Sequence record: PQ631072.1
Length of the DNA stretch: 64,000 bases
Direction: 5' to 3' (one strand)
Source of the DNA: Escherichia phage EC.P2
Within the stretch, counting starts at the first letter, position 1; every line of letters begins with the position of its first letter. Shown here one piece after another: positions 2,015-28,257 of this stretch. A program made the position numbers and the translations under genes. A model generated the notes under the pieces. The model was not told the DNA's origin and searched no databases. It was given only the letters and a program-made list of their open reading frames with translations.

Positions 2015-2023
2015 ATCTCCTCC

Positions 2024-2047
2024 TAATAACCCCCGTGAGGGGGTTTA
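2024..2047 (-). terminator. putative stem-loop terminator/attenuator after HslV-like gene
   Basis: CCCCC-GTGA-GGGGG hairpin at 2030-2043 between convergently spaced genes; weak T-run on minus strand. Confidence 0.35.
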
Positions 2048-2054
2048 TGTTAGA

Positions 2055-2708
2055 TTAATTATCAGAGGACACTTTATCAAGTTTTTCAGAGACTGTCAAT
2101 ACTTTTTCTTGTGATTCTTTCATTTCTGCTAAAATACTTTCAGCTTCATCACTATCAGGATCACCAGTCAACAGCATACTAATTAGTTGCTCCTTGCTGA
2201 AGTTCAGAATATCTTCCGCTGTTAGCTCCAGTTGTTCTTCGATCTCTTCAACAAAAGTTTCACCGCCTGAAAAAGCATCTCGTAGTTTTGCAACTTCCAT
2301 CGCTTCTTCTGGGGTTGCCCCAGCGTCTAAAGCTGCTAAAGCAAAATCTGCCCCACTACCAACAGCATAGTAATCTTCAGTTAAAGGATATGCTCGCGTT
2401 GGATTATTACCCTCGTGCATATAAATTTTACCGTCTGGGTGAACAACCAATGCCACAAACTCTTCATCTTCTTTATCAGGATCTGATTGGATCACCAAAC
2501 CTGGGATTGTCTCTTGTGCTGCCTGGCACTGTAAGTTTTGTTCAAACCAAGAAAAGAAAGTCAGGATAGAAGACAGACGTCCTGCACCACCAACAAGGTA
2601 ATCCCCAATTTTACGCACTTTCTTGAAATTTAAAGTGTCTACTCGATTACCTACTGTTACTTTACCGTCAGATAGAATTTTGTTATGTGTTGCAATAATT
2701 GTTGTCAT
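2055..2708 (-). CDS. HslV/ClpQ-like N-terminal-nucleophile threonine peptidase with acidic C-terminal extension
   Basis: MTTIIA... N-terminus (Thr right after Met), GKVTVGN...KKVRK and VGGAG and YAVGSGADFA segments align to E. coli HslV TTIV...GNTVMKGNVKKVRR...GFAGG...IAIGSGGPYA; about 40 aa longer than HslV with a D/E-rich tail. Confidence 0.6.
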   Translation of the reverse strand: MTTIIATHNKILSDGKVTVGNRVDTLNFKKVRKIGDYLVGGAGRLSSILTFFSWFEQNLQCQAAQETIPGLVIQSDPDKEDEEFVALVVHPDGKIYMHEGNNPTRAYPLTEDYYAVGSGADFALAALDAGATPEEAMEVAKLRDAFSGGETFVEEIEEQLELTAEDILNFSKEQLISMLLTGDPDSDEAESILAEMKESQEKVLTVSEKLDKVSSDN

Positions 2709-27479: not shown

Positions 27480-27848
27480 CTAATTAATGTCAGCACTATG
27501 ATTGTTGAGAGTATAGGATACTCCATCGCCCAAGTCAACATGAATCTCAACTCCTAACTGTCTTTCTAATGGTAAACGTTTTGAGAATTGATAATTACAA
27601 AGTTTACAGTCTAAGTCAAGCAACTCATGTTTGCTTAAACCTGCAACGATAACTTTGCTTCCCACTGTCCACTCAATACCTTCAAAGTTATCTCTTCTTT
27701 TCAAAATGTCAAGTAAGAAGATTATTTGTTGCCATTCCGTAGACAAGTCTTCTTCATAGAATGCAGAACAAAAAGTTTTATCATCGTAGAAAGCATACAT
27801 TATGCCTCCATCTATTGTTTCACTTCTAACGTAACGTGTGACCCTCAT
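27480..27848 (-). CDS. hypothetical protein, first gene of minus-strand block (122 aa)
   Basis: Start trimmed to ATG at 27848 with AGGAGGG RBS. Confidence 0.45.
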   Translation of the reverse strand: MRVTRYVRSETIDGGIMYAFYDDKTFCSAFYEEDLSTEWQQIIFLLDILKRRDNFEGIEWTVGSKVIVAGLSKHELLDLDCKLCNYQFSKRLPLERQLGVEIHVDLGDGVSYTLNNHSADIN

Positions 27849-27887
27849 TATTCCCTCCTGTATGGCTCTGTAACGAGCTAATAGCAC

Positions 27888-28257
27888 CTAAGATATGCAA
27901 TCACCTTACCTCACAGTAAAACTCGTTACAATCGTTTTTAGGAGGTTCAGGTTGTACTTAAAAATAATCTAAAAAGGTGTTGACAAACGCAAAAAAGTAT
28001 GCTACCCTAACCCCCGAAAAACGCCGAGCGCAGCGAGGGGGTGTTATCTAATCTTGTGATACATGATCTAACAGACAACTGAGTAGTCTACATATAGCAC
28101 TATGTTATGTCTATAATACTAACATACATGCTCTATACTAACAATAGATTATTTATTAATTTTATTATTAATTAAATAATAAATATCTATTGACTTTAGA
28201 TCTATCTGTATGTAGAGTAGAGAACATAAAGTCCTAACTCAACTAAGGAGATAAAGA
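27888..28257. promoter_or_regulatory. AT-rich divergent control region between minus- and plus-strand gene blocks (candidate promoter cluster / origin)
   Basis: 370 bp non-coding; contains TTGACA at 27980, a GC-rich hairpin CCCCCG...CGAGGGGG (about 28010-28043), direct repeats CTATAATACTAACA / CTATACTAACA (28115-28145), and AT palindrome ATTTATTAATT...AATTAAATAATAAAT (28150-28185). Confidence 0.5.
28190..28218 (+). promoter_or_regulatory. sigma70-type promoter (TTGACT-17-TAGAGT) for prs-like gene
   Basis: -35 TTGACT at 28190-28195, 17-nt spacer, -10 TAGAGT at 28213-28218, about 40 nt upstream of ATG 28258. Confidence 0.55.

Follow-up and report, generated by a model that had tools for sequence, protein, structure and literature searches.

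How is the transcription of two large and opposed gene blocks started from the few hundred base pairs that separate them? The question is raised by Escherichia phage EC.P2, of which a stretch of 64,000 nucleotides (record PQ631072.1), referred to as the window, was analysed as a whole. The blocks are separated there by an intergenic control region of 409 bp (27849..28257), which extends from a leftward gp106A-like gene to the rightward prs gene. To its left, a minus-strand block of ~36 kb encodes ligases, exonucleases, ribonucleotide reductase, thymidylate synthase and many small open reading frames (ORFs); to its right, prs, nadV and 16 tRNA genes are followed by the terminase, portal, capsid and tail genes. 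The explanation favoured here, to which a probability of about one half is assigned, is that the gap is a hub of three promoters in which one of them, the upstream rightward promoter P_A, acts against the leftward promoter P_L by interference or through an antisense RNA. The architecture of three promoters is in itself probable; the part attributed to P_A is put forward tentatively, the odds being somewhat against it.

In the proposed mechanism the gap would be a compact hub at which transcription is started by the sigma-70 RNA polymerase of the host. P_L and a proximal rightward promoter, P_R2, would stand back to back and share an AT-rich spacer, P_L launching the DNA-metabolism block and P_R2 the prs-nadV-tRNA unit. 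P_A would be a strong-looking early promoter with a perfect -35 element, placed ~95-100 bp in front of P_L and firing towards it, and its transcript would open with a conserved hairpin of GA/GNA type. Transcription from P_A would collide with and occlude P_L, the RNA produced would be an antisense of the leftward mRNA leader (~260 nt), of which it would cover the first ~95 nt, and the leftward block would be held down while P_A is active. A depression of P_L during P_A activity is suggested by analogy with the face-to-face promoters of phage 186, for which transcriptional interference by collision and occlusion has been established (PMC6593788, PMC7498355).

Three predicted promoters in the gap

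The six sequence features listed in a preliminary description of the gap are all present in the window: TTGACT-17-TAGAGT (28190-28218), TTGACA (27980-27985) with TACCCT 17 nt downstream (28003-28008), the tandem repeat ATACTAACA in two copies (28116-28124 and 28135-28143), an AT palindrome (~28142-28192) and a GC stem CCCCC(G)...GGGGG (28011-28042). Statistics drawn from the window only are weak, and, at the level of sequence, the real support is conservation in relatives. The fold of the GC hairpin is no more stable than that of shuffled sequences (z = -1.2 as RNA and -1.4 as DNA), the 9-mer repeat ATACTAACA is a two-copy family only, and a search for gap motifs repeated elsewhere in the window was fruitless, all of them being single-copy in the 64 kb. 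An exceptional value was obtained for the DNA fold of the AT palindrome (z = -5.0), and three same-strand WCTAACA boxes within 77 bp form the densest such cluster in the 64 kb.

Conservation was assessed at two distances. Comparison of the region with phage records gave 55 matches at 95-99.8% identity, nearly all to Justusliebigvirus (phi92-like, Stephanstirmvirinae), and by these matches the window is a Justusliebigvirus genome; PHB05 is collinear with it, with the same coordinates throughout. Among eight distinct genus members, variable sites amount to 1.4% in the module formed by P_A and its hairpin, 2.1% in the stretch containing a dyad and P_L and 2.9% in P_R2 and its leader (indels of the AT tract excluded), against 5.3% and 7.5% in the flanking coding sequences. 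Because it is less variable within the genus than these coding sequences, nearly all of 27900-28257 is under constraint. The more distant relatives, in which the gene neighbourhood is the same and the intergenic sequence has diverged, comprise Citrobacter phage Tr1, a Klebsiella-phage clade (phi1_175008, KP13-26, KP2025), an IMG/VR contig and six metagenomic contigs.

P_A, a predicted sigma-70-type promoter (27980..28008, plus strand), consists of a -35 TTGACA at 27980-27985, a 17-nt spacer, a TGc at 28000-28002 and a -10 TACCCT at 28003-28008; the TGc, an extended -10 element, had gone unnoted in the preliminary description. The start is predicted at ~28015-28017. The consensus is matched at 6/6 positions of the -35, plus TGn, and at 3/6 of the -10. 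In 24 diverged copies TTGAC and TGCTACCCTAA are invariant and the spacer is free in sequence and kept at 17-18 nt in length; fixed hexamers, a fixed spacer length and a free spacer sequence argue that P_A is a promoter. Together with the hairpin core, P_A is kept in three lineages whose surroundings have diverged to ~70% identity or are unalignable.

The leftward promoter had been missed by the preliminary description, which was right in outline in calling the gap a transcription control region between opposed blocks and whose two rightward promoters are both conserved. P_L (28116..28144, minus strand) has a -35 TTGTTA at 28144..28139, a 17-nt spacer, a TGt at 28124..28122 and a -10 TAGTAT at 28121..28116, with a predicted start at ~28109; the consensus is matched at 8/12 positions, plus TGn. 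The minus strand of ten diverged relatives was scanned from the hairpin to the ribosome-binding site, with a score composed of hexamer matches, spacer length and TG extension. In 9/10 of them the top-ranked candidate was at the P_L position, where the -10 ends 77-83 nt away from the core; in L179, the remaining one, the candidate at this position came second. The hexamers found there are TTGTTA/TAGTAT, TTGTAA/TAGTAT, TTGATT/TATAGT, TTGACT/TACATT, TTGACG/TACATT, TTGACT/TACAGT and TTGTAT/TACATT, most of them with TGn. The tandem repeats of the preliminary description are explained in this way, since the ATACTAACA copies are the reverse complements of the extended -10 of P_L (TGTTAGTAT) and of a sequence overlapping its -35 (TTGTTAGTAT). 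TGTTAGA(G/T)T likewise serves as the extended -10 in the predicted plus-strand promoters of the tRNA region.

The position of the leftward promoter is further limited by a leftward ORF of 46-53 aa in the Klebsiella clade (MKINLDQ...VVYHP.KEN), which is conserved in frame and at both termini and starts 13 nt left of the P_A -35; as this ORF abuts P_A, only a place downstream of P_A, on its right, is left for the leftward promoter. The ORF encodes a basic protein (MKINLDQ..DLTPK..GG...VVYHP.KEN..) and is the first leftward gene of that clade (L007 831-971, minus strand; L006, L152, L161, L162, L166, L179 and L180); it is annotated in some records only, matches neither PHROGs nor Pfam and does not occur in the genus of the window. 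So placed, P_A and P_L are convergent; the distance between their predicted starts is ~93 bp in the window and ~100 bp in relatives, and in silico the two facing promoters have the overlapping transcripts (over ~95-100 bp) expected of a convergent-promoter switch. A weaker candidate for an alternative or additional leftward promoter, TTGTAA-17-TAAGGT, is located at 27903..27931 on the minus strand, back to back with P_A. Its counterpart is better in Tr1 (TTGACT-17-TACCAT) and in the IMG/VR relative (TTGACT-17-TATCTT), and a promoter of this type is impossible in the Klebsiella clade, where the space is taken by the ORF. Both leftward promoters may be used.

Between the facing promoters lies a 17-bp dyad, AGACAACTGAGTAGTCT (28073..28089), which is unique in the window and is preceded by GATCTAACA (28065-28073). 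The block GATCTAACAGACnACTGAGTnGTCTA is identical in Citrobacter phage Tr1 save two n positions, and a dyad or hairpin occupies the same place in Klebsiella-clade relatives. The dyad is a candidate operator or protein site, or a candidate pause site.

P_R2 (28190..28218, plus strand), the predicted proximal promoter of the prs-nadV-tRNA unit, reads TTGACT-17-TAGAGT and matches the consensus at 9/12 positions; its start is predicted at ~28225, and the ribosome-binding site of the rightward unit, AAGGAG, follows at 28245-28250. Elements of the form TTGA(C/T)(T/C), 17 nt, TAnnnT are found on the plus strand in 9/10 relatives, ending 17-27 nt before the ribosome-binding site. The usual -10 forms at the other intergenic promoters of the unit are TAGAGT, TAAGAT and TAGATT. 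The AT-only palindrome (28142..28192), made of inverted repeats, has its centre at ~28167, the midpoint of the P_L -35 (28139-28144) and the P_R2 -35 (28190-28195), and its arms extend into both hexamers (CAATAGAT / ATCTATTG). In every clade an AT-rich tract is bracketed by divergent -35 elements, with a length from ~34 to 57 bp; it measures ~45 bp in the window and ~34 bp, with less AT purity, in the Klebsiella clade. The simplest reading is that the palindrome is the symmetric upstream (UP-like) spacer shared by two back-to-back promoters.

Some variation of the AT tract was observed within the genus. Two different insertions or duplications of 11-12 bp (AATTAAATAATA, ATTATTTATTA) occur in some members (28149-28170; L003, L130, L129), and one record annotates the tract as repeat_region. 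The record PP359570.1 (L004), phage ALITA, ends at window position 28143 and restarts at ~28165, 93 nt before prs; it is thus cut inside the palindrome, where ~21 bp seem to be missing, and the cut is probably an artefact of assembly or re-orientation in a low-complexity tract, not a physical end. In phi92, direct terminal repeats of 343 bp are located elsewhere in the genome.

A putative promoter-hairpin module with three copies per genome

The first conserved island of the gap joins P_A to its hairpin: TTGAC(A/T), a spacer of 17-18 nt, TGCTACCCTAA, 8-14 nt and CGAGCG-N2-3-GCGAG. The same layout, with TTGACT or TTTTAC before a 17-nt spacer, describes a module that is repeated in these genomes. 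When a second copy, located in an IMG/VR contig, was used as BLAST query, almost every Justusliebigvirus record matched in at least two places and Phapecoctavirus proved to carry the module too; ~50 instances, of which 33 are distinct, came from pattern scans of IMG/VR, metagenomes and genome collections. With a covariance model built from 24 copies, the complete PD211 genome has exactly three strong matches (87, 68 and 64 bits) and the window one (27976-28047, 67.9 bits, E = 2e-14), the next best reaching 11.8 bits. The module was found across the Stephanstirmvirinae and metagenomic relatives.

The three sites differ in their surroundings. Site A is the copy of the window gap, P_A plus its hairpin. 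Site B belongs to a co-directional block and precedes a small membrane protein, with a second hairpin and then a ribosome-binding site after the module. Site C, with a GTTTTAC -35, lies between two opposite-strand genes, in the gp023/gp024 gap of phi92 by coordinate conversion; two more hairpins and then a T-rich tail come after it (fold z = -2.9). Two of the three copies per genome are aimed against operons. A boxA-like reading of TGCTACCCTAAC was discarded, as the motif would be upstream of the predicted start at sites A and C. Since neither the -10 region nor the hairpin varies among the three sites, a single factor recognising one or the other could control the three modules and would switch them together. 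There is no Rfam family for the module at threshold, and no mention of it was found in the literature. That it is an undescribed regulatory device of the Stephanstirmvirinae and their uncultured relatives, with three sites recognised together by a phage factor that times the early-to-middle switch and reads either the invariant -10 and discriminator or the hairpin, as RNA or as extruded DNA, is entertained with the odds clearly against it.

The hairpin lies in the predicted initial transcribed region (28011..28042, plus strand), with its core, CGAGCGCAGCGAG, at 28025-28037. In the window the core contains the mini-hairpin GCGCAGC (28028-34), flanking tandem G.A/A.G positions and a closing pair C28024-G28038, and its general form is C-GA-GC-(GNA or GNNA)-GC-GA-G, in which a stem of two pairs carries the loop and is continued by two possible sheared G.A pairs per side and by closing Watson-Crick pairs. 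CGAGCG..GCGAG is invariant in all aligned copies (n = 24). Of the four modelled pairs only the closing one varies, with C-G in 18 copies, A-U in 4 and no pair in 2. The stems beyond it are imperfect and differ between lineages; the outer CCCCC/GGGGG stem, which is the GC stem of the preliminary description, is specific to the genus of the window. The suggestion of a small structured RNA made there finds support in part: this stem encloses a hairpin core conserved subfamily-wide, but only one pair covaries and the 145-nt P_A transcript as a whole is not unusually structured (z = -0.24). The sequences GCGNAGC/GCGNNAGC and GCGN(N)AGC are known as exceptionally stable mini-hairpins of single-stranded DNA (PMC13037366); this rule is obeyed by the apex in 23/24 copies, the GCGCAGC of the window included, and broken by site B of Tr1 (GCGAATGC).

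The hairpin has no Rfam family at the gathering threshold, all matches being sub-threshold. Its assignment to GA-cis RNA (RF02987) was rejected, with 21.1 bits against a gathering score of 34.7 and no GA-cis match at E <= 10 for site B of phi92. An NAD+ riboswitch, an idea raised by the position of sites A and B before NAD-salvage genes, was likewise rejected: no nadA/pnuC-type match was obtained at E <= 10, and site B of phi92 is not before natV. The bare 16-mer GCCGAGCGNAGCGAGG proved not diagnostic as a search key, with hits in >120 unrelated IMG/VR contigs, about the chance expectation, mostly at the apexes of other hairpins.

Several observations made in the course of these searches concern module-like sequences. 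At 2101..2020 on the minus strand of the window, another promoter-like sequence, TATTGACA-17-TAAAGT, precedes TCTAACATA and a CCCCCTCACGGGGG hairpin, with a ribosome-binding site coming right after; this site matches the upstream half of the module model (11.8 bits), without the GA hairpin. Module copies with a TTGACT -35 are present in two contigs binned as bacteria, L187 (a Scandinavium sp. metagenome-assembled genome (MAG), 505-kb contig) and L188 (243-kb contig), which could be prophage-like relatives, jumbo phages or chimeric assemblies. GCCGAGCGNAGCGAGG tips longer hairpins in many unrelated viral contigs of IMG/VR (L009-L128; cattccggg...cccggaatg repeats, giant-virus bins), several times in one 403-kb contig, which suggests a widely reused hairpin apex. 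In short, GC-richer IMG/VR contigs (L133, L135, L137, L138), CTACCCT precedes the same apex in a seemingly multi-hairpin non-coding region that has no Rfam match. The 11-mer TGCTACCCTAAC stands directly before a cattcCGAGCGAAGCGAGgaatc hairpin in L150, L178 and L190 (an unrelated Ardenticatenaceae MAG, 53% GC), without a TTGAC -35; a second copy stands inverted at a distance of ~110 nt, and the motif has probably come to lie next to a REP/MITE-like element by chance.

Genome setting of the gap

The gap is bounded on the left by the annotated ATG of the gp106A-like gene (27848..27846), whose ribosome-binding site, AGGAGGG, is at 27859..27853, and on the right by the ATG of prs at 28258. The left boundary given in the preliminary description, 27888, is the end of a mechanically called GTG ORF, and has been moved to 27849. 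Nor is the gap the only long non-coding stretch, as had been stated, since 30957-31428 (472 bp) and the tRNA cluster are likewise non-coding. It does separate two opposed blocks, of which the right one is not purely early, structural genes following prs, nadV and the tRNAs. The rightward unit ends at a strong, bidirectional-looking terminator (34984-35008) after the last tRNA gene, and near-consensus promoter sequences, many with TGn, are found before nadV and between tRNA genes (29162, 30949, 31370, 32037, 32177, 33497).

No tRNA or tmRNA was found in the gap, and the neighbouring proteins belong only to PHROGs families of unknown function, without Pfam match. An origin of the sequence in the host was discarded, 27960-28100 having no match in 5,426 E. 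coli genomes even at E <= 10, as was a coding reading of ATGCTACCCTAA, which gives only M-L-P-stop and has no ribosome-binding site. Upstream of P_A, at 27940-27973 on the plus strand, AGGAGG is followed after 6 nt by TTG and a six-codon ORF (M-Y-L-K-I-I-stop); 27900-27975 is well conserved in the genus, with two variable sites. A 20-nt inverted repeat (27933-27952 / 28004-28023; 16/20 complementary) surrounds the P_A -35 and spacer. In the leftward RNA one of its arms would contain CCUCCU, which is anti-Shine-Dalgarno-like, ~80 nt upstream of the gp106A ribosome-binding site; the repeat is not conserved in the Klebsiella clade. The label 'Campylobacter phage' (host C. jejuni) is borne by four records (MG065639, MG065645, MG065656 and MG065689) that are ~98% identical to E. 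coli Justusliebigvirus in this region and are likely mislabelled or contaminants.

Weighing of the explanations and likeness to known systems

A number of results weigh against the proposed hub with an opposing P_A. Promoter-like matches in the 2-kb surroundings are not enriched (7 against 7.6 expected), and by consensus score alone both P_A (-10 3/6) and P_L (8/12) are below the scan threshold. Covariation in the hairpin is confined to a single pair; its score is reached by only 3/500 shuffles, but the sequences are related. The plus strand of the gap contains no intrinsic terminator (GC-rich stem and U tract) after P_A, so that P_A may read through into prs as a second, tandem promoter; on the minus strand, the terminator match at 28035..28022 is weak (5 pairs) and relies on an A5 run absent in relatives. 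Site B is co-directional with its operon, and an antisense action would consequently not be the general role of the module. In many copies the bases right after the -10 pair with those at about +4 to +8 (mean shuffle p = 0.18, 19 distinct sequences); since the former fall outside the predicted RNA, a structure at the DNA level or a different start is hinted at. A literature search gave no transcript, start-site or transcriptome mapping for the subfamily, Justusliebigvirus and Phapecoctavirus included.

The main rival takes the lack of a terminator between P_A and P_R2, which have the same direction, at face value: P_A would be the upstream tandem promoter of the rightward early unit, and the hairpin a cis-acting leader element for prs-nadV-tRNA expression, either a nut/put-like antitermination signal, a stabiliser of the 5' end or a site for a regulatory protein, which would modify RNA polymerase or the mRNA. 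Sites nut and put follow early promoters, and the hairpin likewise keeps a place 8-14 nt past the -10 at its three sites in each genome. The stem begins at or near the predicted 5' end in several copies, the rightward unit ends at the strong terminator at 34984-35008, and site B heads a co-directional operon with a second leader hairpin before the ribosome-binding site. Site C, however, opposes the local operon and has no downstream gene, the window hairpin is preceded by 7-8 unpaired nt and would protect a 5' end poorly, no N-like or Q-like protein was identified, and the RNA would be without boxA if its start follows the -10. Moreover, the fixed distance to the facing promoter in ten relatives is left unexplained, and the tandem arrangement is judged unlikely. 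An action of the element as DNA is quite unlikely. The mini-hairpin would then be extruded in the non-template strand at initiation, or would form with the invariant TGCTACCCTAA an operator at which a phage protein would shut off the three promoters in concert. The loop variants GAA, GCA, GAAA and GATA fit GCGN(N)AGC (PMC13037366) and not the GNRA rule of RNA, the CCC of the -10, its three bases least critical for sigma, and the following AA are invariant, and the discriminator, whose bases would be outside the RNA, pairs with early transcribed bases more than shuffles do (mean p = 0.18, n = 19). Against this, the copy of the window lacks the small discriminator hairpin, the GCGAATGC of Tr1 site B violates the mini-hairpin rule, the apex is compatible with an RNA hairpin too, as in the sub-threshold GA-cis match of Rfam, and no candidate binding protein was found, the neighbouring proteins having no known function.

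A replication origin, suggested in the preliminary description, is not supported and appears very improbable. It would be of the T4 oriF/oriG or T7 type, with a G-rich P_A transcript forming a persistent R-loop and the AT palindrome as unwinding element. The cumulative GC skew has its minimum at the gap, a 49-bp tract of 100% AT with slippage-type indels lies ~130 bp after the promoter, and the non-template strand past P_A, purine- and G-rich and with a potential stable hairpin, would favour an R-loop. In a related genome that is complete, however, the sign of the skew agrees with the dominant gene strand in 49/49 bins of 3 kb, and it changes at each of the four strand switches (two divergent, two convergent); because its sign follows gene strand and flips at the convergent switches too, it carries no independent origin signal. 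Skew changes in the rV5 genome, of a related phage group, were also attributed to the direction of transcription (PMC3606486). Furthermore, matches to the DnaA box show no enrichment (90 for 102 expected, a single 1-mismatch site falling within the gap), the AT tract varies in length and is down to ~34 bp, with lesser AT purity, in the Klebsiella clade, the G cluster is absent at the site B and site C copies, and there is no iteron family beyond the three short WCTAACA boxes. These were rejected as iterons, as their reverse complement, TGTTAG(A/T)(T/A), is the extended -10 also seen in the tRNA-region promoters. No origin mapping for the subfamily was found in the literature. Scarcely probable at all is a small RNA gene at P_A, whose product would act in trans through two ACUAAC motifs, with the prs translation start and the site B leader, which both carry the complementary GUUAGUAU, as possible targets. 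The copy at site C resembles a ~120-nt RNA that has three hairpins, a loop containing two ACUAAC motifs and a T-rich tail; AUACUAAC occurs twice in the P_A transcript of the window, at +102 and +121, and its complement, AGTTAGTATTCT, in prs codons 3-6 (28263-28274) and in the site B leader of phi92, there directly after the hairpin (L139 2559-2570). This complementarity could be chance or a hint of RNA-RNA pairing. It is just an 8-mer, about what chance gives in 550 bp of AT-rich sequence, it is not kept in Tr1, and in one Klebsiella-clade relative it is broken by an uncompensated synonymous change; no terminator follows P_A at site A, the 145-nt transcript has the ordinary fold given above, and the ACTAAC motifs are already accounted for on the opposite strand as the -10 and -35 of P_L.

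How phi92-like and phAPEC8-like phages regulate their genes is essentially uncharted, in spite of their wide isolation for therapy and their presence in the BASEL collection. The analysis turns an anonymous gap into a testable map of three putative promoters with predicted starts, a convergent pair and a shared upstream spacer, and the part most worth following up is the conserved promoter-leader module, present in three copies and absent from Rfam. Should a coordinated switch or an antisense system be confirmed, it would open a way into the early-to-middle transition of these phages and provide a natural GCGNAGC hairpin in a defined regulatory position; should P_A prove to be merely a tandem promoter, the gap would be an ordinary, if neatly organised, early control region.

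Comparison with known systems yields partial likenesses. The primary origin of T7 and oriF/oriG of T4 combine a promoter with an AT-rich unwinding element, and in the gap too a promoter is followed by an AT-rich tract; here, however, the tract lies between divergent -35 elements, its length is not conserved and the skew is explained by gene orientation. In contrast to mini-hairpin DNA, which is a physico-chemical motif, the apex is here inside a longer invariant CGAGCG..GCGAG at a fixed place after a promoter. GA-cis (RF02987), the best Rfam match (full model, 27937-28052, plus strand), shares the hairpin C-GA-GC-(GNRA/GNA)-GC-GA-G with its G-rich 3' side, but a 61-nt insertion, with the promoter inside it, is required for the match. 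The nut sites of lambda and the put sites of HK022 are conserved hairpin elements a few nt past early promoters, in few copies per genome, and the module hairpin is likewise just downstream of a promoter in three copies; it differs in its sequence and loop type, in an RNA without boxA and in one copy that has no downstream operon, and to our knowledge no N-like protein is known for it. OOP of lambda and sar of P22 are short transcripts from promoters directed against an operon, which overlap a leader or gene end and have defined terminators. Sites A and C share their orientation; at site A a terminator after P_A was sought in vain, the orientation of site B is not antisense, and no homology was detected. 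Finally, the pR/pL promoters of coliphage 186 and Pe/Pc of P2 belong to temperate lysis-lysogeny switches with known repressors, whereas the phage of the window is a large virulent myovirus in which a third promoter stands back to back with one of the facing pair and the promoters are predicted only. What the gap would have in common with them is its basic geometry, with promoters that face each other, a short overlap and possible protein sites in between.

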